Positions 553 to 63,913 of a stretch of DNA of 64,000 nt are shown here, one piece after another. A model generated the notes under the pieces. It had not been told where the DNA came from and ran no database searches. It was given only the letters and a program-made list of their open reading frames with translations. This DNA comes from a virus. Taxonomy: Duplodnaviria > Caudoviricetes. Positions within the stretch are counted from its first letter, which is position 1. Each line of letters starts with the position of its first letter. The stretch lies in the IMG/VR virus record IMGVR_UViG_3300031857_023573, positions 32,001-96,000 of that record; one strand, 5' to 3'. The translations under genes were made by a program, and so were the position numbers.

Positions 553-557
553 AAAAT

Positions 558-587
558 AAAAACCTCTGAAAGTTCAGAGGTTTTTTT
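558..587. terminator. Bidirectional intrinsic terminator
   Basis: AAAACCTCTGAA-AG-TTCAGAGGTTTT with A/T tracts, between convergent genes. Confidence 0.85.
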
Positions 588-1401: not shown

Positions 1402-1420
1402 AATTGTATATATTATGAGT

Positions 1421-2191: not shown

Positions 2192-2200
2192 TTAATTTAT

Positions 2201-3313: not shown

Positions 3314-3348
3314 GATAGAGTATATATAATTAAAATTGAATTAGATAA

Positions 3349-4071: not shown

Positions 4072-4093
4072 TAAAAAAATATACTGTTAACAA

Positions 4094-4495: not shown

Positions 4496-4562
4496 TTTAT
4501 TCAAAGAAAATATTATTATAAACTGACGAAGTTAATATATACAATAAAATTGTATAATTTTA

Positions 4563-6113: not shown

Positions 6114-6115
6114 AT

Positions 6116-7645: not shown

Positions 7646-8334
7646 TTATCAACCTCTTCAAACCACCAGTTGAAATAAACAAAGTTGTCACCAGTCAAGG
7701 TATATTGATTACTATCATATTCAAAAATTAATCTACCGTCATATGATTTCAAAACTTCAATTATTGAGTTTTGTGGAAGTCTAAGTAATTTACCAGTGAG
7801 GTTTGAATAACAAATGACCTCATCTTTTAGTAGTTTGAACTTACCAAATTGAGGTTTCATCCAGTTTTTGATATGTTTGATAATTAATCCCTTGGTTTTG
7901 ATAATCCATTCTTTTGTTTGAAGTAAAAGATGGTCTTTGAATACCTCTGATTTAAATTCTGGATTATTTAATATATCTGTAATAACGCCCCAATATTCAT
8001 CTTCGTCAATTTTAAAACTTAAATAAACATCATACTGAAAACTACTTGATTTCACTATTCTAATGATTTTTACATTTGAAATTTCTTGGTCTTCTAGTGA
8101 AAGTTTTGACTTTAGTGTTTTATAACCTTGTGTATTCTGAAGAGCTCTTGAAAGGTTTCCAAGTTTTGATATTGCTTGTCTTACTACATCTTCGTGTTTG
8201 TCAAATGCATTAATAGAAAGGCTAGGATCATCAACGTGAATTGATGCCCTCACACTATCGGAATTCAATCTTTGGTAGTTGAACTCAGTCGATTCATTTA
8301 CAAGAAATTTTTTGTAATTCGATATTCTTTTCAT
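7642..8334 (-). CDS. Hypothetical protein with leader MKRISNYKKFLVNES
   Basis: 230-aa ORF; shares a palindromic TATA motif with the divergent gene at 8392. Confidence 0.75.
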   Translation of the reverse strand: MKRISNYKKFLVNESTEFNYQRLNSDSVRASIHVDDPSLSINAFDKHEDVVRQAISKLGNLSRALQNTQGYKTLKSKLSLEDQEISNVKIIRIVKSSSFQYDVYLSFKIDEDEYWGVITDILNNPEFKSEVFKDHLLLQTKEWIIKTKGLIIKHIKNWMKPQFGKFKLLKDEVICYSNLTGKLLRLPQNSIIEVLKSYDGRLIFEYDSNQYTLTGDNFVYFNWWFEEVDN

Positions 8335-8361
8335 TAGTAATAATCAGTATTAAAAAATAAT

Positions 8362-8373
8362 AATATATATATT
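8362..8373. promoter_or_regulatory. Palindromic AATATATATATT, candidate bidirectional late promoter
   Basis: Reads AATATATA on both strands between divergent leader-bearing genes (7642-8334 and 8392-8697). Confidence 0.5.
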
Positions 8374-8391
8374 AAAATCTAATGTTATAAT

Positions 8392-8697
8392 ATGAAGATT
8401 AACAGATTCAATGAAAGTGAAGTTCAAAATTTATCCTCTGATAGAACAGACGAGATTATAAAAAGTCTTCAAGAACTATCAGTTTTAATAAATCAAAAAG
8501 ATGAGATAATTGAGTCATTAATAAATGAGTTAAATAATTTTAGAGATGTGTCTAAGTCTAAAAATGATCAAATTGACGATTCAATTTCGAATTTACAAAT
8601 TGTAAAATCTAGTTTTGTTGAGTCACTTGATAAAATGAATAACGTAGTTATCAGTTTGAACGATTACAAAGAGTCGGGTAGAAAATACTTATATTAA
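8392..8697 (+). CDS. Small helical protein with leader MKINRFNES
   Basis: 101-aa ORF, WXG100-like size and helical composition; followed by a terminator. Confidence 0.7.
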   Translation: MKINRFNESEVQNLSSDRTDEIIKSLQELSVLINQKDEIIESLINELNNFRDVSKSKNDQIDDSISNLQIVKSSFVESLDKMNNVVISLNDYKESGRKYLY

Positions 8698-8700
8698 TAA

Positions 8701-8730
8701 AAAAGTCCTCAATTTGAGGACTTTTCTTTT
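8701..8730. terminator. Bidirectional intrinsic terminator
   Basis: AAAAGTCCTCAA-T-TTGAGGACTTTT between convergent genes. Confidence 0.85.
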
Positions 8731-9200
8731 TACTTTAGATAAGTAAGTTTATAAATTGTTTTATAAAAAAGAGCTATGATTTCATCTACAATATTGTGAA
8801 GGTGTGTATCTTCTGATGATATTGCCTTTCTTTCTTTCTTAATAAATTCTACATTTTCTTTTAAGTAGTCTAAAGATTTAGTTTCACTAGTAATTGAGGA
8901 ATCAATTATTTCATATCCTTCTACAATTCCGTATTGACCTTGATATGTCTCGATTAGATCATCAGTGAATTCTAAAATCTCATTATAAAATTCACCAAGT
9001 GCTTCGTGTTGCCATCCAGAACCCATATCACCTTGAACTTGAAGATGAAAAATATGTGAAACCTGTCTTACTTCAAATAACTTTGAAAAGAAGATTGCAA
9101 CTTCTGATTTTTCTATTTGAACTTCTGGTTCATTTTGAACAATTTCTTGTTCATTTAATTTTTCAATTTTTTGTATTTTAAAATCACTAAATCTTTTCAC
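8730..9200 (-). CDS. Ferritin-like / Dps-like protein (DUF5856-type) with N-terminal leader
   Basis: HIFHLQV...QHEALGEFY...TDDLIETYQG matches the Dps ferroxidase H..H...H..E......D..E pattern; GTG start; AATATATA at 9219-9226. Confidence 0.7.
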   Translation of the reverse strand: MKRFSDFKIQKIEKLNEQEIVQNEPEVQIEKSEVAIFFSKLFEVRQVSHIFHLQVQGDMGSGWQHEALGEFYNEILEFTDDLIETYQGQYGIVEGYEIIDSSITSETKSLDYLKENVEFIKKERKAISSEDTHLHNIVDEIIALFYKTIYKLTYLK

Positions 9201-9224
9201 TTTGATTATTATTTTTTTTATATA

Positions 9225-9407
9225 TTATTTTGTCTCACCAATATTTTTGATGGTATATTCTGACTGTTCTTGGATTGACTGAAGAATTGAATCAGACATG
9301 TATCCGGCTTCTCCTTCATTTTCAGCAAAAATTTCTAGTTTTACTTCAGCAACTACTTCATATTTTTTCAAATATTTATTTTCTAATATTTTCGTGAACT
9401 TTTTCAT
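9225..9407 (-). CDS. Small hypothetical protein (MKKFTKILE leader)
   Basis: 60 aa; start overlaps the stop of the upstream gene. Confidence 0.65.
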   Translation of the reverse strand: MKKFTKILENKYLKKYEVVAEVKLEIFAENEGEAGYMSDSILQSIQEQSEYTIKNIGETK

Positions 9408-10477
9408 AAGCTTGCCTTTATATTATTTGCTTTCCTTTTTATTGTCTTGCCTTGAAAATTTATTCTTTTCTGCCAATATTTTAAAAATTCAAGACAATTC
9501 ATTTTATTCAATGTTTCAAAACTTATTACCGGTTGTGTTTTTTGATTATCACATTCTCTTTTATAAGTTTTTACCCACATATCTTTTATTCTATCTGCAA
9601 CATCAGATTCTATTCCTTTATAAGGTTCGTGATCAGAAATTTTACTTAGGAGTTCTTCATAATACTTTTCTGCGTTGAATTTTTCCATCTCATCTGCCTT
9701 TTTATAAATTCTGAACTCAGATAGCTCTTTTTTTGGATATTTTTTTATAAAGTAGTAAATTTCTTGAATATTTGCTCTTGTTTCATGAAATTCAGAAAAG
9801 TAAAGAAAATAGGCGAAGTTTGTCCAGAATTTCCAGATATTTTTTGGAAATTTCCAAATATTTTCAGCCCAGCTAAGTGTTGAGTTAAAACTTCTACTTT
9901 CTGGTCTTATTATTTTAGATTTCCTCTTAACTCTAACATAGTGCTCATAACAATGATGTAGCTCATGATAAACAGTTGAGTTTATATCATCTTCCAGAAT
10001 ATTCTTATAAGTTCTGTTTTTATAATCAAAATCAGGTCCAATATCAATTGAAATTCCTAAATAAATTATTACAGAGTCGTCAGAAACTTGTTTGACTGGT
10101 TCAAGTATTCTTGAGTATCCAGACCAATTTTTATTACCGAAATACGATGCAAAACCACCTGTTTTAATTTCTAAATTTTTATCTGAAGTAGAAGGTGGGT
10201 ATTTTTTATCAAAATCTTTTTTTGATAGCTTATTAAAATCAATTTGTATTTCAAATTGTATTACTGGAAAATCAGACCAAAGTTCTTTATTATAAATAAG
10301 AGGATTTAATATTCTGTAGTCAATAGTTTCTATGGTTTGAAGTACATTTTCACCAGAATAAAAAAAATCAACAAATTTTGATCTAACTCTTCTGAATATC
10401 GTATTACTGAACATCAAGGATGATTCAGATACACCAAACTTTTCAAGTAAAAAATTCTGAAATGTTTTTAACCTCAT
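9404..10477 (-). CDS. Putative zincin metallopeptidase with leader MRLKTFQNFLLE
   Basis: YHELHHCYE (HExxH) plus downstream HETRA..QE (gluzincin-like third ligand); AATATATA at 10505-10512. Confidence 0.6.
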   Translation of the reverse strand: MRLKTFQNFLLEKFGVSESSLMFSNTIFRRVRSKFVDFFYSGENVLQTIETIDYRILNPLIYNKELWSDFPVIQFEIQIDFNKLSKKDFDKKYPPSTSDKNLEIKTGGFASYFGNKNWSGYSRILEPVKQVSDDSVIIYLGISIDIGPDFDYKNRTYKNILEDDINSTVYHELHHCYEHYVRVKRKSKIIRPESRSFNSTLSWAENIWKFPKNIWKFWTNFAYFLYFSEFHETRANIQEIYYFIKKYPKKELSEFRIYKKADEMEKFNAEKYYEELLSKISDHEPYKGIESDVADRIKDMWVKTYKRECDNQKTQPVISFETLNKMNCLEFLKYWQKRINFQGKTIKRKANNIKASL

Positions 10478-10525
10478 AAAACAATAATTAATTGTATTTG
10501 AGATTATATATTAAAATCTAAAGGT

Positions 10526-11008
10526 TTATAATTGTGAAAGCCACTTTTCAATTTGTCTATCAGCAACTTCAATTATATCTTTCTTTTGGAACTTACCATA
10601 GTTTAAAATATCCATTGTCATAATTAGACAGTCAACAGTTTCAAGAAGTATATTATTCTTTATTTCTTCTTTTGATAGATCAGAATTTTTAAAGCCTTTT
10701 AATTTTAAGACTTCAGCAGAGAGTTCTCCAACCTCTTCTTGTAACTTAATAACTCTTTCTGTTAACCCATATCCTTGCATTGAAGTTACATTCTTAATAA
10801 GATCAAAGATGTAATCGAGGTCCTCGTTTGTGAAATCATCCTCTAATCTCACTTTAGATAAATTATTTTGCTCCCAGTGGTCAATTAGTTGTTGAATTAC
10901 AAGAATATCGTTAGTTTGTTCTTCACTTAATTCTACACCGTAGAGACTATCTAAATATTTTGTGTATTTTGAGTAGTCATCGTGAGAATTTATAGGTGTG
11001 ATTTTCAT
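10526..11008 (-). CDS. HigA-like N-terminal domain fused to MazG-like NTP pyrophosphohydrolase
   Basis: C-terminal KLQEEVGELSAE...LLETVDCL is the MazG EExxE..ExxD motif; N-terminal ITPINSHDDY...LIDHWE resembles HigA N-domains. Confidence 0.65.
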   Translation of the reverse strand: MKITPINSHDDYSKYTKYLDSLYGVELSEEQTNDILVIQQLIDHWEQNNLSKVRLEDDFTNEDLDYIFDLIKNVTSMQGYGLTERVIKLQEEVGELSAEVLKLKGFKNSDLSKEEIKNNILLETVDCLIMTMDILNYGKFQKKDIIEVADRQIEKWLSQL

Positions 11009-11056
11009 ATTATAGTTAATTAAAATAATATATACAGAAAAATATATACTTTATAT

Positions 11057-11323
11057 ATGAAATATTTAAAAATGTTTGAAGAATTTAGAATGAGTCCAGA
11101 AACTGCAGAACCAGTGATTGCACCACCTTCAACGCCAACAGAAACACCAAGACCTTGGAGACCAGTTCCAACTCAAGTTCCAAGACCTGGTACAGAAGAA
11201 AAACCAATGGGTTCGTTTGAAGAAGTTATGGATATTTTCTTTTATGAATTAGATAAGATTAAAGACACACCAGAAGGTCAATCAATTATAAAAAAATTAC
11301 AAGATAAATATGGCAATCTCTAA
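11057..11323 (+). CDS. Pro-rich small protein with leader MKYLKMFEEF
   Basis: 88 aa; two AATATATA copies upstream (11027-11034, 11041-11048); first of three coupled genes. Confidence 0.7.
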   Translation: MKYLKMFEEFRMSPETAEPVIAPPSTPTETPRPWRPVPTQVPRPGTEEKPMGSFEEVMDIFFYELDKIKDTPEGQSIIKKLQDKYGNL

Positions 11324-12737
11324 AAAATTCTCACAGTTTTTAAATGAGGCTTCACTAAAGGGCAATATTGGTGTTCCAGGTGAAGGTGGAACTGAAGGTT
11401 CTTGGATCGATTCGATAAATCGCGAACAAAGAGACAAAGTCAGAGACTTTGAAAGAACTAATATGAATCTTTTAAGAGATTTTCCAAGAATTATTCAGAA
11501 TTCTCAATCATTACAAAGAGGTAAAGAAAAAGAACTTTCTGAACTTTGTCAAAAGTCGTTTTATCAATTATTTGGTACTTTACTTGACGATGTCACCCTT
11601 GATTTAAAAATTAGTCAAGAGGCTCGTCAGATGATGTCAGGTACACCCGAAAAATCTACTCAAAAAGTTGAAAATATTGTAGACCAGAGAGTTCTAGATG
11701 AAATAATGAAAAGAAAAATTCTAAGAACAATTCAACAAGGAAAGGGTCTTAATTCTAAATCATTACTAAACCTACCAATGTTTAAAGATGGTATAAAAGA
11801 AATTTTAGGAGAAAGAAACTCAGAATTATACATTAACAATTTGAACAATATAGTTAAAGTTATGGCATTTTTTGATGCGACTCTATCAGAAGCTCAAATC
11901 TCACAAGCTCTAAAGATGAATGCACAAGGCGCTTGTGATATTAAGATAGAAGAAGAAAAAAAGGATAAAGATAAACAAAAAGATGCAGAACAACTTCTTA
12001 ATGATTTAGAAAACGGTATTGATCTTACTGAAACTGAATCAGATATACTTAGTGACATTAAAGTTACAATTAAGGCACGTGGTGTTGATATGGGTATATT
12101 AATTCACGAATCACTTAAAGGTATTTATAAGTTAGCGACTCAAATGAGTCTTGAGCACTTACCAGAAGAACTAGCTAAACAAGTTTTGCAAAATGTTGAT
12201 ACTATTGCGGATGAGCCACAAGAATTTAAGTATGGTCCATCTATGCAAAAGCAGTTTGAAAAAGTTGTTAATTCTCACCCAAGAGTAAAAAAGATACTTG
12301 ATGAATATCAAAGAGTAATTACTCAGGGAGATTTTGAAGAGAGTAAAGCTGCAGAAAATGAAATTGCTTCTTTTCAAGAACAACTATTCTTTTATGTGTT
12401 TGGATACTTAGCTAATCTTGGAAAAGAAAATCCAAAAGATATGTTGAATGTTGTTTATGCTGTCTTGGCTGATAAGAAAGATGACATTGAAAAATTGTTT
12501 TTCCCAATAATTGTTGATTCTGTTACTGGAATAGAAAAAGAGTTTGAATATCAAATGTCGAAGAAAAAGACACAAGCTGAAAAGACTGACGTAAAATCAG
12601 AGGTAAAGCCAGACGTTAAAGTAGAAATTACACTTGCTGACTTACAAGAGCAACTTGATGATGCTTTAGATAATGAAGATTATGAAAAGGCATCTGAAAT
12701 CAGAGATGAGATAAAAAAAAGATTTCCAAATAAATAA
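11310..12737 (+). CDS. Hypothetical protein with leader and C-terminal UVR (UvrB/C) motif
   Basis: MAISKKFSQFLNEA start; ends LQEQLDDALDNEDYEKASEIRDEIK; internal LIHESLKG. Confidence 0.7.
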   Translation: MAISKKFSQFLNEASLKGNIGVPGEGGTEGSWIDSINREQRDKVRDFERTNMNLLRDFPRIIQNSQSLQRGKEKELSELCQKSFYQLFGTLLDDVTLDLKISQEARQMMSGTPEKSTQKVENIVDQRVLDEIMKRKILRTIQQGKGLNSKSLLNLPMFKDGIKEILGERNSELYINNLNNIVKVMAFFDATLSEAQISQALKMNAQGACDIKIEEEKKDKDKQKDAEQLLNDLENGIDLTETESDILSDIKVTIKARGVDMGILIHESLKGIYKLATQMSLEHLPEELAKQVLQNVDTIADEPQEFKYGPSMQKQFEKVVNSHPRVKKILDEYQRVITQGDFEESKAAENEIASFQEQLFFYVFGYLANLGKENPKDMLNVVYAVLADKKDDIEKLFFPIIVDSVTGIEKEFEYQMSKKKTQAEKTDVKSEVKPDVKVEITLADLQEQLDDALDNEDYEKASEIRDEIKKRFPNK

Positions 12738-12743
12738 TTAATT

Positions 12744-14726
12744 ATGTTACTTAGATTTCAAGACTTTAAATTAAATGAAAATGTAGCCGCTGCTAAAAAA
12801 ATATTGAAAGACACTTTCGTATTGAACAAGGCTTTAAAGGAACTAAATCTTGGGTTTAAGACCGATTCGACTGGAATGTTTCTTTTTGATAAGTCTGATG
12901 CTCCTATAAATTTCAGTGATCTGCCTGAAGAAGTTCAGGTTGAGGTAAAAAAGAAGATTAGAGAGATCAAATTAACTGAAGAGGAGCAAAGAGTGGTTGA
13001 AAGACATCCAAAATTTAATGAAATAAGAGAAATCTTGGGCGATAAATTAGGATGGGCAGGTCTATTTGCCTATCTATATTTTAAAGAAAAGGTTGAAATA
13101 AACGAACTTAAATTAATATTCGATGACCTTGTTGCTTTTCAGGACTTACTTGGAAAATTAAGAAGACCTATTTCAAATTATATAGACACAAACATACCTA
13201 ATAATTCTGAACAACTTATAGATGATATAGAAGATATCAAAAGATATAGAAAGTTAAAAAAGTTCATAGATGAGTTTAATAAAGATTTAAAAGCAGACTA
13301 TGCTGTGACTCCAAAGTATTTTAAAGATAGACTTATAGATATTGCTACTGCATTTGATGACTTAGGAAAAGAACAAAGTGGTAAAGTTGACCCAGACAAG
13401 CAAAGAGCTATTCAAAAAAGATTTTTTGATAAAATTGGAAGATATAAAACCGTTAGAGAGTTGACAGATGGAGCTGATTCGTTTTTAAAGGCAGAGTCAA
13501 ATGCAGATGTGGCTAAGTTTTACCAAGCAATAGATAAGTGTAATAAAAAATACGGTGAATATGGTATAAAAGTTCTCTATGATGAGGGTGGACTTTTAAT
13601 AATGGAAGTTAAGTCGTTTTCAGCTTGTAAAGAACTCTTCTCAAATACATCTTGGTGTATAGCTCAGTATTTAGGTCAGTGGAATAGTTATGTTGGTGGT
13701 GATGATGTATTTAACAAACAATATGCTATTTTAAATTTCAATTTACCACCATCTAATAATGAATCTATTATTGGTATAACAATCGCTCCTAGACAAGAGG
13801 TTAGAGCTTGTCATTTGAAAAACGATGCTAATGCTAAGGGTAATTTTCAGAGTATTTTTAATAAATTTGAAGAATCTTTGGGATTGGAAAGGGGATTTAT
13901 CTGGAAAGGACTTGAGCCAATGTCAAGTAAAGAGATTGATGAGAAGAAAAGAAGAATTGTAGCAAATAGAGAAGTTGTTAAAAAAGGTCTATCTCTTGAA
14001 CAATTGAAGAAGTATATTGTTGACGATGGTGCTGATGTAAATGCTGGAAATGGTCAAGCTCTAGATAATGCAGTTGCAGAAGATGACATCTCAAAAGTAG
14101 AATTTCTTTTAGATTTTGGAGCATCTGCTAATTTAAGAAATAGACAAGAGGCAACCGTTAACAAAGTTAAATCATTTGAAATTTTAAAACTATTGATTAA
14201 AAAAGGAGCCGAAATCACACCACAAGTATTTAAATCATTAGTTGAAGATGAAAATGCAATTAAATTCTGTCTTGATAATGGTTTAGATCCTAATTTTGAA
14301 GATAATATGCCACTTAGACTCGCTGTTAAAAATGGTAAATTAAACATTGTAAAAATGCTTGAAGAATATAATGTGAGCACTGAGAATAGAAGGCAGATGA
14401 ATACTAAGCACGCTGCTGAGTTTCAAAGATGGGATATTTTAGAGTATTTTATTAACAAAGGTGGATCCTATATTGAAGGATTTGAAAATGTGTTAAAATG
14501 GATTGGACACACTCAAAAAATTCAACCAGTTGAGAAGAAACTAGAAGTCTTAGATAGACTTCAAGGTTATATCGATAGTGGTAAAGTAAAAGTTAGTGAA
14601 TCTGGATATAAAGTTGGAAGTAATCGTGATGCTAAATTAGAAGATGTTTTGAATCAATTCGGTAGTGTCAAAAACTGGATTGTTGGTCAACACGAAGATC
14701 TGAAAAGAGCTAGTCAATCAAGATAG
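12744..14726 (+). CDS. Ankyrin-repeat protein with leader and PcfJ-like SWCIA segment
   Basis: GADVNAGNGQALDNAV..., GLDPNFEDNMPLRLAVKNGKLNIVKML ankyrin repeats (about 14020-14465); MLLRFQDFKLNEN start. Confidence 0.75.
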   Translation: MLLRFQDFKLNENVAAAKKILKDTFVLNKALKELNLGFKTDSTGMFLFDKSDAPINFSDLPEEVQVEVKKKIREIKLTEEEQRVVERHPKFNEIREILGDKLGWAGLFAYLYFKEKVEINELKLIFDDLVAFQDLLGKLRRPISNYIDTNIPNNSEQLIDDIEDIKRYRKLKKFIDEFNKDLKADYAVTPKYFKDRLIDIATAFDDLGKEQSGKVDPDKQRAIQKRFFDKIGRYKTVRELTDGADSFLKAESNADVAKFYQAIDKCNKKYGEYGIKVLYDEGGLLIMEVKSFSACKELFSNTSWCIAQYLGQWNSYVGGDDVFNKQYAILNFNLPPSNNESIIGITIAPRQEVRACHLKNDANAKGNFQSIFNKFEESLGLERGFIWKGLEPMSSKEIDEKKRRIVANREVVKKGLSLEQLKKYIVDDGADVNAGNGQALDNAVAEDDISKVEFLLDFGASANLRNRQEATVNKVKSFEILKLLIKKGAEITPQVFKSLVEDENAIKFCLDNGLDPNFEDNMPLRLAVKNGKLNIVKMLEEYNVSTENRRQMNTKHAAEFQRWDILEYFINKGGSYIEGFENVLKWIGHTQKIQPVEKKLEVLDRLQGYIDSGKVKVSESGYKVGSNRDAKLEDVLNQFGSVKNWIVGQHEDLKRASQSR

Positions 14727-15194
14727 AAGATCATCTAGGTTAGAATCCCTAGACAATCCACTTTCTTTTAATATTAAGCTGTAAAGTTCTTCAAAGTTAG
14801 AATCATTTAGTTCTTTGAATACTTCTTTTGATTTTTCTAATACCTCATAATATAGATTTTCATCTTTAAAGGCAAATTTCTTGTCTTTCCAATGTAAAAG
14901 ATATCCTATATCTTTCATAATATCTAAACTTAGATAATCACTTGAGTTTGAATTATAATTTAAATTAAAACCGTTTTCTGAAGAGATGTAAATGTGGTCC
15001 TTATCTACACTCATGTTGAGTGTGTCACGAAGTTTAAGTAATCGAAAAATCATATTTCTAGTTTTCTTTTTAATCTCTTTAGTTGGTTCAGTGAATAATA
15101 AGTTTTGAAAACTGTTACTTGATTCTAATACTTTAATTTCATGAAGTTCTTTTATTGATTGATTAATAACTTTTTTGATTTTTTTCGATTTCAT
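14718..15194 (-). CDS. Hypothetical protein
   Basis: 158-aa ORF with short convergent overlap; no recognised motif. Confidence 0.65.
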   Translation of the reverse strand: MKSKKIKKVINQSIKELHEIKVLESSNSFQNLLFTEPTKEIKKKTRNMIFRLLKLRDTLNMSVDKDHIYISSENGFNLNYNSNSSDYLSLDIMKDIGYLLHWKDKKFAFKDENLYYEVLEKSKEVFKELNDSNFEELYSLILKESGLSRDSNLDDLLS

Positions 15195-15258
15195 AAAATT
15201 TTATATCAAATTGCAAGAGATAGTTTATTAAGATATATACTTTAAATATTTTGAAATT

Positions 15259-15966
15259 TTGAACATTATATCAATAGATCCTTCACTAATTTCTACTGCA
15301 CTTGTTGTTAACGGAAAAATTTTTAACTATTGTAGAGAATCGAAAGTTATGCTAAAAAGTGGTATGTCGAAATGGTTCAAATCAGCTGAGCAATATTGCA
15401 CTTATAGATTTATTTCGTACAGAGAGTTTTCTAACTATTCTGATGGTGAGTTAATTAAATTGAAGGATTATGATCAAATCACAGAAATGATAATTAACGA
15501 CATACTTGAGAATATTAAATCAAATGAGGAATCCGTTGTTGGAATCGAAGGGTATAATTTCGGCGCAACCGTTGGAGATTTAATAGATTTAGTTACATTT
15601 TCAACTTTACTTAGAAAGAAATTATATGATAGGGTATCTGAAAATATAATTGTAATGTCACCCTCTACACTTAAATTAGAGGCTTGTAAATTGACTTATG
15701 AGCCAATAGTTAAAGAGATAGGAAAAAAGGTTAAAAGAATAGAGTATGAGTGGAGAAATAAACTTGGAATTTCTGGTGGTAAATTCACCAAAAGAGATAT
15801 GGCACTGTGTATAATTGAAAATGATAAAATTAATCACGATTGGTTTAAATATTTAAAGTCTATCAAAAGTGAACTTCTAGAGGTTAAAGATATTCAAAAG
15901 CCTCATGAAGATATTAATGATGCTGTTTTAATTTACCACGTTTTAAAATCAGATTTTCAGAAATAG
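15259..15966 (+). CDS. RuvC-like Holliday junction resolvase
   Basis: IISIDPSLISTAL, VVGIEGY and EDINDA give the RuvC D-E-D-D acidic set; TTG start. Confidence 0.75.
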   Translation: MNIISIDPSLISTALVVNGKIFNYCRESKVMLKSGMSKWFKSAEQYCTYRFISYREFSNYSDGELIKLKDYDQITEMIINDILENIKSNEESVVGIEGYNFGATVGDLIDLVTFSTLLRKKLYDRVSENIIVMSPSTLKLEACKLTYEPIVKEIGKKVKRIEYEWRNKLGISGGKFTKRDMALCIIENDKINHDWFKYLKSIKSELLEVKDIQKPHEDINDAVLIYHVLKSDFQK

Positions 15967-15977
15967 ATATATAATTT

Positions 15978-16301
15978 ATGAATCAAATGGATTTTGAAAA
16001 ATTGTTTGGTGATAATTCTAAAGATTATTTCGAATTGTTAATTAAGAAGTATAATTTAAAGCCAAAATATGTGGTTTATCAAAATGAACAAGATGAAGTT
16101 ATCGTTGATGAACAATGGACATCAGAAAATACTGAAAAAGTTAAAGCAAATAGAATTTTCAAATTTGATCCTAATTTTCTTGATTTAATTGAAGATGAAT
16201 GTGTAAATGAAGTTTTAGAAAAAGTAATAGAGCTGTATGTTTCTATTGAGGATTATGAAAATGCTGCAATAGTTAAAAATATTCTCGATTCTGAGTATTA
16301 A
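15978..16301 (+). CDS. Hypothetical protein with C-terminal UVR-like motif
   Basis: Ends LEKVIELYVSIEDYENAAIVKNIL; GATATATA 4 nt upstream of ATG. Confidence 0.65.
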   Translation: MNQMDFEKLFGDNSKDYFELLIKKYNLKPKYVVYQNEQDEVIVDEQWTSENTEKVKANRIFKFDPNFLDLIEDECVNEVLEKVIELYVSIEDYENAAIVKNILDSEY

Positions 16302-16477
16302 GACTTATAGTCACCGCCTCTTCTCTTTCTCTTACAATACTGAATTTGTGAAAAACCTCTTGGATTATTACAGTCAATTGACTTTTTATATTTAACAGAC
16401 CATCTTGATTTCATGCCTTTTCTTGGCTTGTTATAAGATTCATTTATAAACTCTTCGTATGTAAAGATATTATTCAT
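16298..16477 (-). CDS. 59-aa basic peptide with leader (absent from the ORF track)
   Basis: My translation: MNNIFTYEEFINESYNKPRKGMKSRWSVKYKKSIDCNNPRGFSQIQYCKRKRRGGDYKS; its ATG overlaps the TAA of the upstream gene (TAATG). Confidence 0.8.
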   Translation of the reverse strand: MNNIFTYEEFINESYNKPRKGMKSRWSVKYKKSIDCNNPRGFSQIQYCKRKRRGGDYKS

Positions 16478-16830
16478 TATTTTTGAGAGAGTAATTGTGT
16501 TACTATAAAGACTATCTTATTTTCCGACTTTTTATATTCAAATTCGGATATTTTAAAATCCATAACATCAAAGTGACCTTGGATTTGTGAGTAAACATCT
16601 TTCTTTTTTAAGAATTCGAATACCTCACTTAGATTATTTTTATCAGATTCGTCTAAAAGATCTATTTGAAATTTTTTATTATCAATTTCTTCAAGTTTTA
16701 TTTGAATATTTGGAAATTTTTCAAGCATCTCTGAGAATACATAAGAAAGTACTTCTTCATCTATGTCAAATACTTTCTCGAAGTCAAAAAATTCAAATAC
16801 ATAATTTTCAAAAGTTAATAAATGTTTCAT
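16477..16830 (-). CDS. Acidic hypothetical protein with leader MKHLLTFENYVFE
   Basis: 117 aa; AATATATA at 16835-16842, 4 nt upstream of ATG. Confidence 0.75.
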   Translation of the reverse strand: MKHLLTFENYVFEFFDFEKVFDIDEEVLSYVFSEMLEKFPNIQIKLEEIDNKKFQIDLLDESDKNNLSEVFEFLKKKDVYSQIQGHFDVMDFKISEFEYKKSENKIVFIVTQLLSQK

Positions 16831-16880
16831 ATCTTATATATTTATTTGGTAAATTACAATTTAGTTCTTAAATTAGCAGT

Positions 16881-17294
16881 ATGAATACAAATAAATTGAC
16901 ATCAGAAAAGGCTTATCAGTTTATACACGGCGGTAATTCTGTATTTACTGTACTAAACACTCTAACTAAAAATCGATTTACTTACAAGGTTAAAAGACAT
17001 AAAGTAGAAGATGTCTATTTTGTGAATCTTCTTGTTAATCCAGATACCTATGTTTATATTGGATTTTTGAAACATGGTAATTTTATTTTGTCTAAGAAAT
17101 CTAAATTCTCAAAAGACTCACAGAGTGTAAAAGTTTTCAACTATATTTATACTAAATTAAAAATAGGTAATTTACCAGATATTATTGAGTTTTGGCACGA
17201 GGGAAAATGCGGAAAATGTGGTCGTAGTTTGACGGTACCTGAGAGTATAGATAGTGGTTTTGGACCAGAGTGTATAAAAAAGATAGTAAAATAA
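16881..17294 (+). CDS. DUF6011-family zinc-ribbon protein
   Basis: HEGKCGKCGRSLTVPESIDSGFGPEC C-terminus; F..GGNS.FT N-terminus. Confidence 0.75.
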   Translation: MNTNKLTSEKAYQFIHGGNSVFTVLNTLTKNRFTYKVKRHKVEDVYFVNLLVNPDTYVYIGFLKHGNFILSKKSKFSKDSQSVKVFNYIYTKLKIGNLPDIIEFWHEGKCGKCGRSLTVPESIDSGFGPECIKKIVK

Positions 17295-17318
17295 AAAACC
17301 CTCAAGAGAGGGTTTTTT
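17293..17318. terminator. Intrinsic terminator (bidirectional shape)
   Basis: AAAAAACCCTC-AAGA-GAGGGTTTTTT. Confidence 0.85.
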
Positions 17319-17418
17319 GAGCCCGACCGGATTGGTCGAATCCACCACATTGTTTGTTTAAGTTAAACAATGAAAACTATAATGTATATAACATTGAATT
17401 TAAGAAGTTTTTAAAATT

Positions 17419-17652
17419 ATGAAACGTCTAACATTAAAGTCATATGGCTTTTTAATTGAGTCAAATTTAGAGAGAATAAAATTAGGAAAAGTTTTTGATC
17501 AAAATCTAAAACCCTATGAAAAGGATTTTCTAGAAAATATGCTACAGTATCTGGAAGAAAGGGAAAGATTTGAAGATTGTCTTATTGTAAGCTCTCTTAT
17601 TAAATCTCGTTTTGACCACGATAAAAACTATATTTATGATGGAAAAATCTGA
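17419..17652 (+). CDS. Small protein with degenerate UVR-like C-terminus
   Basis: LENMLQYLEERERFEDCLIVSSLIK; first gene of a coupled plus-strand run. Confidence 0.55.
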   Translation: MKRLTLKSYGFLIESNLERIKLGKVFDQNLKPYEKDFLENMLQYLEERERFEDCLIVSSLIKSRFDHDKNYIYDGKI

Positions 17653-17857
17653 AATTCAACAATTGAAAGATTTACAGTATGAAGAATTTGTTCAGAAAAC
17701 ACTCACTGAACTTATAATACTTTCTACAAATCATAACATCTTAAAGGAACTAATAGATCATTCCAGAGAAATTGGATTACATGATGAATTACTAGATGCT
17801 CTCTCTACTATGAGAGACGAAAAAATTTTAGAGATTTTAAAAAATGAACAGTCGTGA
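17636..17857 (+). CDS. Hypothetical protein (start probably the ATG at 17636)
   Basis: In-frame ATG at 17636 reduces overlap with the upstream gene; 3' end overlaps the next start. Confidence 0.55.
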   Translation: MMEKSEIQQLKDLQYEEFVQKTLTELIILSTNHNILKELIDHSREIGLHDELLDALSTMRDEKILEILKNEQS

Positions 17858-18716
17858 AAATTTTGTAAAATTATTTGACTTAAATGTTCCAAAAATTGAA
17901 TATTTTGACTATTACTTAGGTCAGATGTCAAAATCTAAAAAGTATGGTGATATTTCTAACTATTATAAACTTTTTGAGTCATCCACTCAGGATATTACCG
18001 ACCCTTATGAATATCGTAGGGTCAAGGCACTTGAGGTAACTGATTTTATTCAGGGTACTAACGCCTATAATGAGCTTTGTTACGATAAGAATTTAATAGA
18101 ATACCCAACTAATAAAAATATTGAGTATAGTGATGATTTAAATTATTTATCTATAGATTTAAAATCGGCAAACTGGATTGCGTTAAAGTCTTATGATCCA
18201 CCTCATATTAACGAGTTAGGAGATGATTTTTCACAATTTTTTTCACGTTTTGACCTACCTAAAGTTTTTATAGAGTCAAAATATTTAAGACAGTTTTTAT
18301 TTTCTAAACTTGATACCAAGAAAATAATTAAGGTTCAGCGAAATATGATACAAGAAATTGTTAGAAAGTATCAAAGTGATCTTCTAGTAGAGGGTGTTAG
18401 AAATGATGAAGTCATTTTCCAGTTTTCAGACTTTAGTGAGGTTAGAGATATTTCAAATGAAATTGATCACAGTAAATATAAAATGAAGATTTTTAAAACT
18501 CAGAAATTTGATGATTTTAGAGTCGATAGTCATTTTGATACTTCTGGAAGTTTAATACACAAAGAATTGATTGGAGTTGATACTTCCGTATTTTACCTCA
18601 ATTTGAAGAAATATATTACTGGTGAAAAAATTGAACTTAAAGACCTTTATTTCAGGTCTGGTGGTAATCTTGCTATTTGGTATGAAGATAATTTAAAAAT
18701 TGAATACAATGATTGA
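17844..18716 (+). CDS. Hypothetical protein with possible degenerate polymerase-palm motifs
   Basis: SIDLKSAN and VRNDEVIF could be motif A- and motif C-like aspartates; function uncertain. Confidence 0.5.
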   Translation: MNSRENFVKLFDLNVPKIEYFDYYLGQMSKSKKYGDISNYYKLFESSTQDITDPYEYRRVKALEVTDFIQGTNAYNELCYDKNLIEYPTNKNIEYSDDLNYLSIDLKSANWIALKSYDPPHINELGDDFSQFFSRFDLPKVFIESKYLRQFLFSKLDTKKIIKVQRNMIQEIVRKYQSDLLVEGVRNDEVIFQFSDFSEVRDISNEIDHSKYKMKIFKTQKFDDFRVDSHFDTSGSLIHKELIGVDTSVFYLNLKKYITGEKIELKDLYFRSGGNLAIWYEDNLKIEYND

Positions 18717-19326
18717 TCTTTTTGAAGAGCCTAAAATTAATAAGTCTAATATAATATGTCATAGTGGGGGTGCTGAAGGTTCTGATACTTACTTTTCAGA
18801 AATAGGACTTCAATTTGGTGTGAAGACAAGAGCTTACTCCTACAAAACTAAGTATCATACAAGTAGTGATAAAGTTGAAATTTCAGATTCTGATTTCAAT
18901 GAAGGTGTCGGTAAAGTAACTCTCGCAAATAAAGTTTTGTGTCGGTATGGAATAAACAAGTACATGAATTTACTAGCCAGAAATTGGGCACAAGTCAAAT
19001 ATTCTACTCAAACTTTTGCAATAGGTAATATAGTTGAGCCTGGAAAAAAATCACAAAAAGGTTACTACTCTAAGTCAAAATTCGAAACAATCGAAGGTGG
19101 TACTGGTTACGCAATACAAATGTCTATAGACCACTTGAGAGAAGTCTATGTTTTTGATCAAACACAATTAAAGTGGTTTAAATGGTCTTATACCGCTATG
19201 AAATTTATTCAAATTGATATAAGTCCAAAAATTACTTGTCAAAATTTCGCAGGTATAGGTACGAGACAAATAAATGAGCCTGGAATTGGAGCAATCAGAC
19301 AACTTTATGAAAATACTTTTAGTTAA
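18700..19326 (+). CDS. SLOG superfamily (DprA/YspA-like) nucleotide-binding protein
   Basis: ICHSGGAEGSD, GGTGYAI and FAGIGTR motifs. Confidence 0.55.
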   Translation: MNTMIDLFEEPKINKSNIICHSGGAEGSDTYFSEIGLQFGVKTRAYSYKTKYHTSSDKVEISDSDFNEGVGKVTLANKVLCRYGINKYMNLLARNWAQVKYSTQTFAIGNIVEPGKKSQKGYYSKSKFETIEGGTGYAIQMSIDHLREVYVFDQTQLKWFKWSYTAMKFIQIDISPKITCQNFAGIGTRQINEPGIGAIRQLYENTFS

Positions 19327-19377
19327 AACTTTTTTATTTTAGTTTATATAAACACTTATTAAAATTTAACAAAATAA

Positions 19378-19842
19378 ATGAAAAATTATACTACAAAAAA
19401 CGGATATCAAAAGATGGTTGATGAATTACATCAACTTACTACCGTTGAATATAGAAATGCTATCGAGATGCTCCAAGAAGCACGTGATAAAGGAGATCTT
19501 TCTGAAAATGCTGAGTATGAGGCAGCCAAGGAATTTCATGCCAAAGTTATAAATAAAATTACTAAACTTAAAGAAAAGATTCGTCAGTCTGAAATAATTA
19601 ATCAGTCACATCTTTCAATAGATTCTGTGAATATGCTATCTACGGTTGAAATTAGAAACCATAAGATTGGAAAGACGCAAATTTGGAAACTAGTTTCAGA
19701 AAATGAGATTGATACTAAAAATGGTAAAATCTCATTCAATTCACCAATTGGTTCTGCCTTAATCGGTCATAAAGTAGGTGAGGTAGTAGAAGTTAGTGTT
19801 CCATCTGGATCAATGAAGCTTGAAATTCTTAGTATTAAATGA
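19378..19842 (+). CDS. greA: Transcription elongation factor GreA
   Basis: ARDKGDLSENAEYEAAK with both acidic catalytic residues; ISFNSPIGSALIGHKVGEVVEV. Confidence 0.95.
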   Translation: MKNYTTKNGYQKMVDELHQLTTVEYRNAIEMLQEARDKGDLSENAEYEAAKEFHAKVINKITKLKEKIRQSEIINQSHLSIDSVNMLSTVEIRNHKIGKTQIWKLVSENEIDTKNGKISFNSPIGSALIGHKVGEVVEVSVPSGSMKLEILSIK

Positions 19843-21156: not shown

Positions 21157-21186
21157 AAAAACCCTGTCATATGACAGGGTTTTTTA
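21157..21186. terminator. Bidirectional terminator (perfect 28-bp palindrome)
   Basis: AAAAACCCTGTCAT/ATGACAGGGTTTTT between convergent genes. Confidence 0.85.
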
Positions 21187-21615
21187 TTTAGAAAGAATAA
21201 TTTTATCAATTTCATCGATATTTTCAATACCTTTATTGTTTATCTTATCTAGAATATCATCAACATCGGCGACATCAAGTCTGTAGTTATCAAAGAATGA
21301 TTTAAATTGTGTATTTGAGACAATAAAATCAAAATCCTTAGTCTCTCCTTTAATAATATTTTCGCCTACTTCTACTAGGTCAAAATTTACATACGGTTCA
21401 AGAATAGAACAAATTCTCATTACCTTCATTTTAGAAAGTCTGAAGAACATATACTCACTATCATCATATTCTTCTGAAACAACGTTATCCATGTCACCAG
21501 GATCTAAAACATCACTAATTTCATTCAGAATTTTGTCTTGAATATCGTGTGGAACTTCACCTTCTCCTGTTTTAGAAGAAACTGTCTTGACTAGGTAGAT
21601 GTTGCTACATTTCAT
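21184..21615 (-). CDS. Hypothetical protein with C-terminal DUF6576-like motif
   Basis: VDDILDKINNKGIENIDEIDKIIL. Confidence 0.6.
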   Translation of the reverse strand: MKCSNIYLVKTVSSKTGEGEVPHDIQDKILNEISDVLDPGDMDNVVSEEYDDSEYMFFRLSKMKVMRICSILEPYVNFDLVEVGENIIKGETKDFDFIVSNTQFKSFFDNYRLDVADVDDILDKINNKGIENIDEIDKIILSK

Positions 21616-21645
21616 ATTGCTAATATAAATAAATATTTTAAAATA

Positions 21646-22044
21646 TCAAATATTTTCTAAACAATTTTTATCAAGTTGAGTCAATGAATCAATTCCAAGA
21701 TAATTGATTTTATCAAGAACAAGGTCAATAGTTAAAAATTCTTCAATATAATGTTCGGTTTCTAATTCAAATTCGGTGTTTTTAAGTGATAATCTACCAA
21801 TTAGTATATCGTAAGATACGTCTTTTAATTCATAATATACTCCTTTTTTGTCTAGAAAATTTTGAACCTTTGAAATAGTATAATCATTACATATTATATA
21901 AGATGTTACAAAACCATCATATTCAATATCTTCGGAAATTATATCAAGACTTTGTAGTTCTTCAATTTCAATAGAAGAAAGTGAATTAAGAAGATCTTCA
22001 CATTGTGTCTTTGTAAGATTTGTATCTACCTTAAAAAACTTCAT
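21646..22044 (-). CDS. Hypothetical protein with C-terminal DUF6576-like motif (tandem paralogue)
   Basis: IDLVLDKINYLGIDSLTQLDKNCL. Confidence 0.6.
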   Translation of the reverse strand: MKFFKVDTNLTKTQCEDLLNSLSSIEIEELQSLDIISEDIEYDGFVTSYIICNDYTISKVQNFLDKKGVYYELKDVSYDILIGRLSLKNTEFELETEHYIEEFLTIDLVLDKINYLGIDSLTQLDKNCLENI

Positions 22045-22121
22045 AATATAAATATAACGATTTTCTTTAAAATTAAGAAATTTTATTTTTAAGAAATTAT
22101 ATATTATTTTGGAAACTTATT

Positions 22122-22148
22122 AAAAAAACCCAGTCAATTGACTGGGTT
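22122..22148 (-). terminator. Terminator directly 3' of the tRNA
   Basis: Perfect palindrome AACCCAGTCAATTGACTGGGTT (22127-22148) followed by a U-tract on the minus strand. Confidence 0.85.
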
Positions 22149-22153
22149 ACTAG

Positions 22154-22249
22154 TTGCGGGAAAAGGACTCGAACCTTTGACCTTTGGGTTATTTCTTCCT
22201 TGATAATTCAAAAATGAGCCCAACGAGCTACCAACTGCTCCACCCCGCA
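22154..22249 (-). tRNA. Initiator-type tRNA-Met(CAU) with a 23-nt insertion in the anticodon loop; no encoded CCA
   Basis: TGCGGGGTGGAGCAGTTGGTAGCTCGTTGGGCTCAT[TTTTGAATTATCAAGGAAGAAAT]AACCCAAAGGTCAAAGGTTCGAGTCCTTTTCCCGCAA; intact acceptor, D and T arms; GGG/CCC anticodon stem; 73 nt without the insert. Confidence 0.88.
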
Positions 22250-22367
22250 ATATTTATATATTAATATTGATTTCGAGTTTTTAAATTTATGAACAATAAA
22301 TAATAATTTATATGAAAATTTTCAATAATTGGATATCAAATGAAGATATTTTATAAAATATTTTTCA

Positions 22368-22771: not shown

Positions 22772-23362
22772 TTGATGATTAGAATACTTGGAAATATACC
22801 AAAAGGTGAATTTGGTCTCGCTTGCTCTGGTGGTGTGGACTCTATGGCTGTTGCCAATTTTTTATTAAACGGTGGTTGGGAGCCAAATATTTTATATTTT
22901 AACCATAATACTGAACATGGTCAACTTGCTGAAGAGTTTGTAACTAATTATTGTAAAACACATAATTTAAAATTACATGTTGATCGTACAGACCTTACTC
23001 CTAAGTCAAATAAAGAAAAGATTTGGAGTGATTTAAGATACGAATTTTTCTCTAAGTTTGATTTTCCAGTAATTACTTGCCACCATTTAGATGATTGTGT
23101 CGAGACATATCTCTTTTCATGTCTTAGGGGATTTCAATCAGTTATTCCATATTCTAAGGGTAATGTAATTAGACCTTTTTTACTTAATGAAAAGTCAGTA
23201 TTTTACGACTGGTGTTTACATAAATCGGTTCCTTTTATTGAAGATGAATCTAATTTAAATGTCAATTTCTCAAGAAACAGAATTCGTCATAATATTGTTC
23301 CAGAGGCACTTACGGTAAACCCTGGATTAAAGACGGTTGTTAAGAAAATGATTAGTATATAA
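22772..23362 (+). CDS. tilS: tRNA(Ile)-lysidine synthetase, catalytic domain only
   Basis: LACSGGVDSMA PP-loop, FNH, CHHLDDCVET, IRPFL, EDESN and RNRIRHNIVP motifs. Confidence 0.88.
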   Translation: MMIRILGNIPKGEFGLACSGGVDSMAVANFLLNGGWEPNILYFNHNTEHGQLAEEFVTNYCKTHNLKLHVDRTDLTPKSNKEKIWSDLRYEFFSKFDFPVITCHHLDDCVETYLFSCLRGFQSVIPYSKGNVIRPFLLNEKSVFYDWCLHKSVPFIEDESNLNVNFSRNRIRHNIVPEALTVNPGLKTVVKKMISI

Positions 23363-63463: not shown

Positions 63464-63913
63464 TTAAATAACATGAGAAAGATACTGACCTTCTTTTAAT
63501 TTAATTTTTTTACAGCCAATTTGATTCTCAAGTTCCTCAATCCAATTTTTCCAATTATCATTTAATAGTTTAATAAATGATTCTGAACTATTTCTATCTT
63601 TGTATCGTTGAATATACTCGTCTTTTATTAAGATATCTGGATAAACGAGTGTGAAATCTATTTTATTATTAACAAGAGCCTCTCTAACTTCTTTATGTGA
63701 TGAAACCATAATAACATCTACCTTACCGATATTACTTTTGATATGTTCAATGTAATTTCTTGGGAAATCAGATTTATCAAATTTACTTGAATCAGAATCT
63801 AAAACAATTTTATCACTATTTGTTCTGAAAAAGTGTGATTTTCCACATCCTGGGAAAGCAGATATAACTAGAGTATCTTTTGTATTATAATCTGTATAGT
63901 TTTTTAATTTCAT
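63464..63913 (-). CDS. P-loop NTPase / nucleotide kinase-like protein
   Basis: VISAFPGCGKS Walker A, D.DSS.F; TATAAATA 5 nt upstream (63919-63926). Confidence 0.7.
   Translation of the reverse strand: MKLKNYTDYNTKDTLVISAFPGCGKSHFFRTNSDKIVLDSDSSKFDKSDFPRNYIEHIKSNIGKVDVIMVSSHKEVREALVNNKIDFTLVYPDILIKDEYIQRYKDRNSSESFIKLLNDNWKNWIEELENQIGCKKIKLKEGQYLSHVI

Follow-up and report, generated by a model that had tools for sequence, protein, structure and literature searches.

The interrupted tRNA gene and its expression signals

The window considered here is a stretch of 64,000 nucleotides (nt) of a Caudoviricetes virus (IMG/VR record IMGVR_UViG_3300031857_023573, positions 32,001 to 96,000; G+C content about 30%), and it contains a gene for an initiator-type tRNA(CAU) whose anticodon loop is interrupted by a 23-nt insert. 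The Rfam tRNA model RF00005 spans 22249..22154 with 54.3 bits (E 6.4e-09), covers 71 of its 71 positions and assigns 27 extra bases to the anticodon loop. ARAGORN calls no tRNA at 22154-22249 in its default mode; with introns allowed (-i), it reports a tRNA-Met(cat) with a 23-nt intron. An earlier note on this DNA had described an fMet-like gene with three G-C pairs, a motif 5 nt upstream and a terminator of its own, all of which Rfam, ARAGORN and the sequence confirm. The strand needs correcting: the gene is on the minus strand and runs from 22249 to 22154.

The body of the tRNA is regular. The acceptor stem is UGCGGGG/UCCCGCA, A73 is present and CCA is not encoded, and the D and T arms are normal (D-loop AGUUGGUA; T arm AAAGG/CCUUU). 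The anticodon stem, UUGGG/CCCAA, has three consecutive G-C pairs at 29-31:39-41, as in initiators; two such pairs are found in the relatives L283, L032 and L039, and two in the phage genome LR756502.1 (C:G and G:C). As encoded, the anticodon loop reads CUCAU, 23 nt and AA, and the 7-nt initiator loop CUCAUAA with its CAU anticodon appears only once the insert is exactly removed. Bacterial initiator tRNAs have a mismatch at 1x72, and an E. coli initiator tRNA whose C1 is changed to U1 also works in elongation. The U1:A72 pair recorded in the earlier note is present, but it is not an initiator trait, since both bacterial initiators and eight of the nine aligned relatives are mismatched at this position. 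Because the C1-to-U1 change lets the E. coli initiator tRNA act in elongation, the window tRNA, given its U1:A72 pair, may have a mixed role in initiation and elongation.

The gene is framed by its own signals (Table 1). The promoter-like motif TAATATATA occurs 21 times in the window against 3.5 expected, a count reached by none of 100 shuffles, and it is also present upstream of tRNAs in L283, LR756502.1 and LR745206.1. Within the tRNA, a weak hairpin of 5 base pairs (bp) at 22217-22229 (minus strand), made of the 3' strand of the D stem and the 5' strand of the anticodon stem, was scored as terminator-like. It is followed by the U run of the insert, which is kept in all three homologous inserts described below.

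Table 1. Positions of the tRNA gene, its parts and signals, and of other genes discussed (window coordinates unless another record is named; aa, amino acids; ORF, open reading frame)
Feature	Position	Strand	Description	Basis
Interrupted initiator-type tRNA(CAU) gene	22154..22249	-	96 nt (73 nt minus insert)	Rfam RF00005; ARAGORN intron mode
5' exon, C34/A35 register	22216..22249	-	tRNA positions 1-34: acceptor 5' strand, D arm, anticodon stem 5' strand, C32 U33 C34	alignment with relatives
Insert, C34/A35 register	22193..22215	-	23 nt (equivalent to 22191-22213 if cut after U36)	
3' exon	22154..22192	-	positions 35-73: A35 U36 A37 A38, anticodon stem 3' strand, variable loop, T arm, acceptor 3' strand, A73	
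Promoter-like motif	22255..22263	-	TAATATATA; ends 5 nt before tRNA 5' end	motif count
Intrinsic terminator	22120..22148 (hairpin 22148..22127)	-	9-bp stem (5 G-C pairs), 4-nt loop, then T run; begins 6 nt past tRNA	
Swappable tRNA cassette	22105..22360	-	about 250 nt, limits approximate; identical in phages with flanking proteins 52-70% identical	alignments with L120, L292, L293, L295
TilS-like gene	22772..23362	+	minimal, 196 aa, catalytic N-domain only	TIGR02432, PF01171
Small acidic proteins beside CAU tRNA	21184-22044; L283 4822-5253; L033 460-852	- (window)	tail ILDKI..G..SL....K..LE (weak DUF6576 match)	
P-loop nucleotide-kinase-like gene	63464..63913	-	149 aa, resembles viral nucleotide kinases	
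PF09414 ORFs	LR756502.1 378234-380365, 297568, 485705; LR745206.1 73412, 271741, 346461-347774, 465225			

Boundaries and authenticity of the insert

Because of an AU repeat at the ends of the insert, there are three equivalent registers for its removal in the window: cuts after C34, A35 or U36 each give CUCAUAA, exactly as the earlier note had stated, while a 37/38 cut gives CUCAUUA. The relatives narrow this choice. In L283 and LR756502.1 the first base of the insert is G, and only a 34/35 cut gives CAU; cuts at 35/36 and 36/37 give CGU, and ARAGORN picked a register yielding CGU for inserts that begin with G. From these G-first inserts, together with the initiator-type bodies and the intronless orthologues that read CAU, we infer that the junction lies between C34 and A35. 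The placement given in the earlier note, right after CAT, is thus one of the three registers that the window allows, but the one favoured is not specifically after CAT.

The limits of the insert are fixed by ordinary bacterial tRNA-fMet contigs, which match 22151-22192 and 22214-22253 separately and join the two halves directly. These come from the same runs as the contigs, from three other studies (estuary 2025, freshwater 2018, freshwater 2017), that bridge the insert and differ from the window only outside the tRNA. (The four runs compared across the insert are all DNA contigs; one of them, X20, is labelled RNA-Seq and is probably DNA.) Sequence from the window stretch is present in lake, freshwater and estuary metagenome runs of 15 studies, and the run searches listed no RNA run that contains it. 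No second copy of the insert occurs in the window when up to 3 mismatches are allowed. An origin as a repeat or miniature inverted-repeat transposable element was rejected on account of this single copy and of a terminal inverted repeat no longer than about 4-6 A/T nucleotides.

Spurious loop duplications and N-gaps are frequent at bacterial tRNA-fMet loci in public assemblies, and the earlier note had itself named an assembly artefact as something that would undo its claim. However, the insert does not duplicate neighbouring sequence, and the identical bridging contigs of three independent studies effectively refute such an origin. The same insert appears again in L120 and L292, which come from other samples, and diverged homologues exist in L283 and LR756502.1. 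The probability that assembly or scaffolding produced the insert is practically nil.

Homologous inserts in related phages

Comparison of the locus in related phages, which the earlier note had proposed, reveals homologous inserts at the same site in L283 and LR756502.1, within tRNAs whose arms are not decaying. In L283 (an IMG/VR contig of 110 kilobases, kb), the CAU tRNA loop is CUC, 23 nt and AUAA. Its insert is identical to that of the window at 17 of 23 positions, and all differences fall at position 1 or in the loop; this identity of 74% is about equal to that of the exons, 77%. The two loci are syntenic, with four neighbour proteins 48-64% identical. LR756502.1, a complete genome of 642 kb, is more distant (exon identity to the window 62%). 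Its CAU tRNA (L005 273-377) has the loop CUC, 31 nt and AUAA, and the 31-nt insert has GUUUUUGAUU, AAAU and GAAGAA in common with its homologues and corresponds to the L283 insert with one addition of 3 nt and another of 5 nt. The blocks common to the three inserts are a 5' (R)UUUUUGA and a 3' GGAAGAA or GAAGAA, with a variable loop between them. (Two ARAGORN calls in LR756502.1 were rejected as spurious, a 'tRNA-Ser i(36,265)' that merges two separate CAU tRNAs and a 'tRNA-Phe i(34,28)'.)

Selection on the tRNA body was examined in a cloverleaf alignment of nine relatives, five with an insert and four without. Of the cells, 95.8% are paired and two-sided changes occur at 11 of 21 pairs; none of 500 shuffles matches this, and slid registers all fall well short. 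Many of the compensatory changes are differences among the intron-bearing genes themselves, in the anticodon stem (UUGGG/CCCAA versus CAAGG/CCUUG), the T stem (AAAGG/CCUUU versus GAUGG/CCAUC) and the D stem (GAGC/GCUC versus GGGA/UCCC). None of the five insert-bearing genes has lost its CUC and AUAA flanks, and precise excision would thus give the initiator loop in each. Simple decay of the interrupted gene is unlikely because stems, flanks and insert blocks have been kept despite exon identities of 62-77%; the view of the earlier note that this is not simple decay is borne out by the homologous inserts and the compensatory changes.

Further interrupted genes were sought with a pattern consisting of a consensus fMet-type tRNA with 4-34 extra loop bases. 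In 185,579 species genomes it found 40 loci. The genuine foreign inserts among them all belong to DPANN or other archaea and always follow A37, and the bacterial matches are all tandem micro-duplications or N-gaps. The identical pattern applied to metagenomes gave mostly archaeal initiators and G+C-rich chance matches, the bacterial-type loci being L120, L142, L185 and L130. L142 (Ga0307474_10000110, 8459-8553, plus strand) is a C1xC72 initiator-type tRNA with a 21-nt insert in the same place. Its contig is phage-like and unrelated to the window, with a tRNA cluster, an HNH gene and a sigma-70-like promoter, and its insert has a layout similar to that of the window (a hairpin, then a short tail) but an unrelated sequence. 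L185 has a 26-nt insert in a bacterial-type tRNA with an aberrant T loop, and L130 a 27-nt insert.

Other loci were encountered in these scans. L130, L152 and L155, from the metagenomes, are possibly archaeal or degenerate. Archaeal (DPANN-like) initiator tRNAs that carry an insert in the D loop (after GCCUGGAGU) as well as a second one after A37 were found in metagenomes and genomes (L119, L122, L128, L141, L163, L164, L189, L192, L205, L250). In bacterial assemblies, the tRNA-fMet anticodon region contains partial tandem duplications (L240, L242, L246, L251, L252, L256, L266, L267) or N-gaps (L261, L264, L272-L275), mostly probable assembly artefacts; Pseudomonas brassicacearum 38D7 has two such copies.

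Exchange of cassettes at the locus

The tRNA gene lies within a segment that has been exchanged between phages, at a hot spot for such exchange. L120 and L292 have a block of about 330 nt that is near-identical to the window and extends from the promoter motif through the tRNA (96/96) and the terminator to the next promoter, while the flanking proteins are 37-90% identical. In L295, the neighbour protein is 93% identical and the flanking DNA almost the same, but about 250 nt are replaced by an inverted, intronless CAU tRNA (locus L295 1590-1790) whose sequence differs from that of the window and which has a 1x72 mismatch. L293 (2040-2190), whose neighbour protein is 69% identical, likewise has an inverted intronless initiator-type tRNA, and the exons of L283 are 90-92% identical to the intronless tRNAs of other relatives. 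In the relatives the locus is thus always occupied by one initiator-type CAU tRNA, with or without the insert. Intron-bearing and intronless cassettes are exchanged there, which argues that the two forms are functionally equivalent. Such exchange would also fit the outcome expected of an arms race over the initiator tRNA.

In L283, a cluster with Glu and Tyr tRNAs, bordered by HNH endonuclease genes, includes an intronless CAU tRNA (4497-4577, minus strand) that has three G-C pairs and an unusual 13-nt variable region and lies 60 nt downstream of the interrupted gene.

Predicted fold of the insert and known classes of intron

With the anticodon stem enforced, the minimum-energy fold is an extended arm. 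This fold leaves C32 and A35-A38 unpaired and forms a helix between the U-run and the purine run. U33 and C34 are joined to an A and a G that lie two to three bases ahead of the 3' junction, with the first insert base mismatched or bulged. The same fold is predicted for LR756502.1 and L142, and in L283 it lies 0.3 kcal/mol above the minimum. The small hairpin that the earlier note had drawn (U-run/GA with UCAAGG, loop AUUA) is the minimum-energy fold, but it barely beats shuffled sequences. In the MAFFT columns, the window and L283 inserts fail to share one register.

Neither of the familiar mechanisms of tRNA intron removal fits the insert. In agreement with the earlier note, no canonical bulge-helix-bulge could be drawn: the central helix of the window has one of four pairs in each register that restores the loop, against three of four, plus both flanking helices, in an archaeal control. 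The inserts of the window, L283 and LR756502.1 also lie elsewhere than at the canonical 37/38 position. As the note had judged, 23 nt is far too short for self-splicing, and no Rfam intron or ribozyme family matches the insert; a permissive scan of 22050-22350 returns the tRNA and rows at chance level, and the sole Intron_gpI row (9.8 bits) is on the opposite strand, beside the insert. In the C34/A35 register, the group I rule of a U before the 5' junction and a terminal G does not hold, as C precedes the junction and the window and L283 inserts end in A. The last base of the LR756502.1 insert is G, and the window insert would end in U if cut after U36. The geometries of RNase III, RNase P and RNase Z were also tried by hand on the predicted fold and rejected, each missing one junction by 1-2 nt.

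Candidate enzymes and neighbouring genes

Near the tRNA, Pfam detected neither a nuclease nor a ligase among the ORFs searched, 20 in 25-19842 and 10 more surrounding the gene. A gene for a 212-aa minimal ATP-dependent ligase lies just past the window end, preceding the P-loop nucleotide-kinase-like gene. The ligase is near the Pfam cut-offs (RNA_ligase 27.1 bits, cut-off 27; DNA_ligase_A_M 29.2, cut-off 26.2), and from their sequences the two proteins are a candidate pair for the healing and sealing of ends. RNA-ligase-family ORFs (PF09414) number four in LR756502.1 and five in LR745206.1; they are paralogous, about 213-243 aa long with one of 364 aa, and in each genome two of them are no more than about 20 kb from tRNA genes. 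Judged by family, these proteins could seal exons. They also occur in the 634-kb phage LR745206.1, which is intronless.

The TilS-like gene lies 520 nt from the interrupted tRNA. Its product matches TIGR02432 (lysidine_TilS_N, 107 bits against a cut-off of 93.6) and PF01171 and is without the C-terminal domains that discriminate between tRNAs. Such a gene is found near CAU tRNAs in many huge-phage contigs (250 IMG/VR relatives). In CAU tRNAs, enzymes of the TilS family act on C34, which is also where the insert junction lies; a functional link between the TilS-like protein and the insert is a matter of conjecture. In addition, LR756502.1 (L005 537-611) and L033 (1521-1596) have, in tandem after the initiator-type tRNA, a CAU tRNA of another kind whose D arm is odd (GGUGAAACGGAAUUCAU-like), and this may be a tRNA-Ile2-type substrate of the phage TilS. 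The small acidic proteins with the DUF6576-like tail, encoded beside the tRNA, were considered as a splicing factor and rejected, as homologues flank intronless tRNAs in L032 and L033.

Among GenBank phages, the DNA of the window matches only two metagenomic phages (642 and 634 kb), over the TilS-like gene. In the roughly 20 kb of sequence covered past the window end, genes for IF3, SmpB, a sigma factor and LigA follow directly. In its body, the tRNA is very similar to the U1-type initiator tRNA found in a Bacteroidales genome and in Prevotella Lak phages, which makes a host among the Bacteroidota likely. A 357-aa ORF at 61607-62680 (plus strand), which adjoins a ClpP-like gene, has a GIY-YIG-like N-terminus (a faint Pfam match) and is probably a free-standing homing endonuclease.

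A proposed protein-dependent mini-intron and its alternatives

Taken together, these comparisons make a protein-spliced mini-intron the best-supported reading of the insert, drawn wholly from comparative evidence. In this reading, the insert would be a genuine, heritable and protein-dependent intron of a phage initiator-type tRNA(CAU), lying between C34 and A35, and we hold it tentatively, as something a little short of probable. It draws on several lines of evidence: the insert is identical across three studies, with the tRNA matching at 96/96 in L120 and L292; homologous inserts occupy the same site in the diverged L283 and LR756502.1; the exons of intron-bearing genes show the constraint of tRNAs, and their flanks restore the initiator loop; L295 and L293 hold an intronless initiator-type tRNA at the same locus, so the forms look interchangeable; and ligase-family and kinase-like genes are present in the phages, with RtcB also found in a Bacteroides control genome.

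The proposed course would begin with transcription from the phage-type motif TAATATATA to the gene's own terminator, both of which are seen in the DNA, and ordinary tRNA enzymes would then trim the ends and add the CCA that the gene does not encode. The insert would fold on itself, with the U-run pairing to the purine run and U33-C34 to the A-G before its 3' end. This predicted fold would leave the two junctions about 3 bp apart at the base of the extended anticodon stem, beside the unpaired A35-A38. A putative protein endonuclease, not of the archaeal bulge-helix-bulge type, would cut at both junctions and a ligase would reseal the loop. Candidates for this ligase are RtcB of the host or, from the phage, the small ATP-dependent ligase-family protein together with the kinase-like protein encoded next to it. 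The product would be a 73-nt tRNA with the loop CUCAUAA. The intron-bearing gene itself travels as a cassette of about 250 nt, alternating with intronless initiator-type cassettes at one locus. The wider proposition, that huge phages have a protein-dependent tRNA splicing unrelated to the bulge-helix-bulge, in which a cut between C34 and A35 at the base of a short, conserved hairpin is resealed by phage repair-type enzymes, is more doubtful, though still a real possibility.

Several observations weigh against a spliced intron. No endonuclease candidate was found. The earlier note had suggested a tRNA endonuclease with an RtcB-type ligase, but PF01974 (splicing endonuclease) and PF01139 (RtcB) are absent from LR756502.1, LR745206.1 and the L283 record, although the same models found matches in four of four archaeal control genomes (PF01974) and RtcB in a Bacteroides genome (PF01139). 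The bulge-helix-bulge is absent from all five phage inserts, whose central helix has 0-2 of four pairs in every register that restores the loop. The insert hairpins are just marginally more stable than shuffled sequences (p 0.03-0.1; about 0.1 for the window) and the pairing of C34 in the predicted fold is at chance level; for these reasons the extended arm is treated as a hypothesis and no covariation is claimed for the insert helix. The junction is likewise deduced, from the CGU that the other registers would give in L283 and LR756502.1. The form is rare: five targeted pattern scans of IMG/VR gave one such gene, and the consensus-fMet scan of the species genomes found no genuine loop insert of 4-34 nt in bacteria. 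In LR756502.1, the acceptor stem of the interrupted tRNA contains a bulged A and the gene scores just 35 bits, and the interrupted tRNA of L283 need not supply initiation because of the intronless CAU tRNA 60 nt downstream.

In an alternative reading, the RNA would act unspliced, as a tRNA look-alike that is L-shaped but has its anticodon hidden inside an extended arm. As the earlier note had also considered, it could serve as a decoy; it would compete for an enzyme that works on initiator or CAU tRNAs, for instance the minimal TilS of the phage, whose gene is close by, or a VapC-like nuclease of the host that cuts anticodon loops. The sequence of the insert is conserved, beyond its length alone. 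Folding predicts that C34 is paired and A35-A38 are exposed at minimum energy for three of the five inserts (those of the window, LR756502.1 and L142) and near the optimum for L283. The intronless CAU tRNA that L283 retains alongside, the survival of the LR756502.1 copy despite its drift from a standard acceptor stem, and the fast turnover of initiator-tRNA cassettes, as in an arms race, also speak for a decoy. A passage in PMC10264068 proposes anticodon-loop changes as a way for phage tRNAs to evade anticodon nucleases. However, a decoy has no obvious need for the perfect CUCAUAA that removal gives and that is kept in five of five copies, the ordinary intronless tRNA that close relatives have at the locus suggests the same job for both forms, and no target nuclease is known for the hosts. 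A function of the unspliced RNA is unlikely, if far from negligible.

A dead or dispensable allele, in which a small selfish or accidental insertion in an expendable tRNA has spread passively with a recombining cassette, would account for the rarity of the form. Because phages exchange the cassette whole, sequences that are identical in different lineages may have been transferred recently and need not be under selection, and micro-duplication artefacts of the tRNA-fMet loop are about as frequent in databases as genuine foreign inserts. The insert might even be what is left of a group I intron, with only a P1-like hairpin remaining, as the hairpin formed with U33-C34 resembles P1 geometry. Yet insert blocks and flanks are intact between genes whose exons are 62-77% identical and carry compensatory stem changes, the promoter motif and terminator are retained, and the single copy in the window speaks against a repeat family. 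A group I remnant is further at odds with the C before the junction, with the terminal A of the window and L283 inserts (G only in LR756502.1) and with the lack of any Intron_gpI match overlapping the insert on its strand. An allele of this kind appears rather improbable.

Relation to known systems

Bacteria and their viruses are held to lack tRNA splicing by proteins; to our knowledge, the long, unexplained inserts of the Lak megaphages are the one indication of it in print. These 'enigmatic' introns of 79-114 nt lie in Tyr, Phe, Thr and Gly tRNAs, are identical across cohorts yet present or absent between genomes, have no Rfam match and contain tRNA-like elements (Devoto et al. 2019, PMC6784885). 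The insert of the window resembles them (PMC6784885) as a non-ribozyme insertion in the anticodon loop of a huge-phage tRNA that is invariant across samples and present or absent between close genomes. The phages are of a related, probably Bacteroidota-infecting kind, and in both cases the splicing is putative. The Lak introns, however, lie beside the anticodon and have a T-arm-like GGTTCGAATCC inside, whereas the window insert lies within the anticodon, is a plain hairpin without tRNA shape, is much shorter (23 nt, or 31 nt in a relative) and interrupts an initiator-type CAU tRNA. The initiator-type tRNA of Lak-B1 is intronless, and the entries for Lak A1 and A2 in Table S6 of the same study include no Met(CAT) intron (PMC6784885). 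The window insert is a much smaller and simpler case of the unexplained phage tRNA introns, with the same phage clade and population behaviour but another size, shape, tRNA and junction.

As a short, non-catalytic insert in the anticodon region, it is also like the protein-spliced introns of archaea and eukaryotes (EndA/Sen, with RtcB or Trl1), and archaeal initiator tRNAs with introns of 12-34 nt were recovered by the same pattern scans. In these, the intron follows A37 (CUCAUA, then intron) and forms a bulge-helix-bulge, while the window has a junction at 34/35, no such motif and a bacterial-type tRNA, and the genomes of its relatives (LR756502.1, LR745206.1, the L283 record) have no EndA or RtcB homologue. 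With group I tRNA introns it has in common the interruption of a bacterial-type tRNA in the anticodon loop (the classical tRNA-Leu intron also follows position 34), a predicted P1-like pairing of the 5' exon end with intron bases, and a patchy, mobile distribution. However, a group I core is at least about 200 nt and is usually bounded by a U before the 5' junction and a terminal G, in contrast to the 23 nt, after C and ending in A, of the window. As of 2014, every known phage group I intron lay in a protein gene (Hausner et al. 2014, PMC3984707).

The phage ligase-family and kinase-like genes are reminiscent of T4 tRNA repair, in which the anticodon nuclease PrrC is countered by the kinase-and-ligase pair Pnkp and Rnl1, which reseals the cut anticodon loop, and of the RNA repair sets of jumbo phages (Iyer et al. 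2021, PMC7824862). T4 repair rejoins a single break and removes nothing, whereas the window tRNA would need two cuts 23 nt apart, and the window ligase only just reaches the Pfam cut-offs. The intervening sequences of bacterial rRNA are hairpin inserts of about 90 nt or longer that extend a helix and are excised by RNase III without religation, leaving the rRNA fragmented. The window insert is likewise hairpin-shaped and lengthens a helix of a stable RNA, but a tRNA nicked in its anticodon would need religation, and on the predicted fold the 2-nt stagger of RNase III is off the proposed junctions by one base.

Significance

With two conserved blocks and one favoured junction, the 23-nt insert is a compact substrate for finding the nuclease and the ligase. 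The phage also has IF3, SmpB and, nearby, a minimal TilS, and an insert in its initiator tRNA may therefore have to do with the way huge phages seize the start of translation or shield it. An RNA that stays unspliced, as a conserved imitation of a tRNA with its anticodon hidden, would itself represent a phage counter-measure of a new type. If huge phages do have a splicing route of their own that reseals the loop with repair-type enzymes, the phage initiator tRNA could mature only with the help of phage factors, and enzymes that act against C34 or the anticodon loop, or modify them, would not recognise the precursor.

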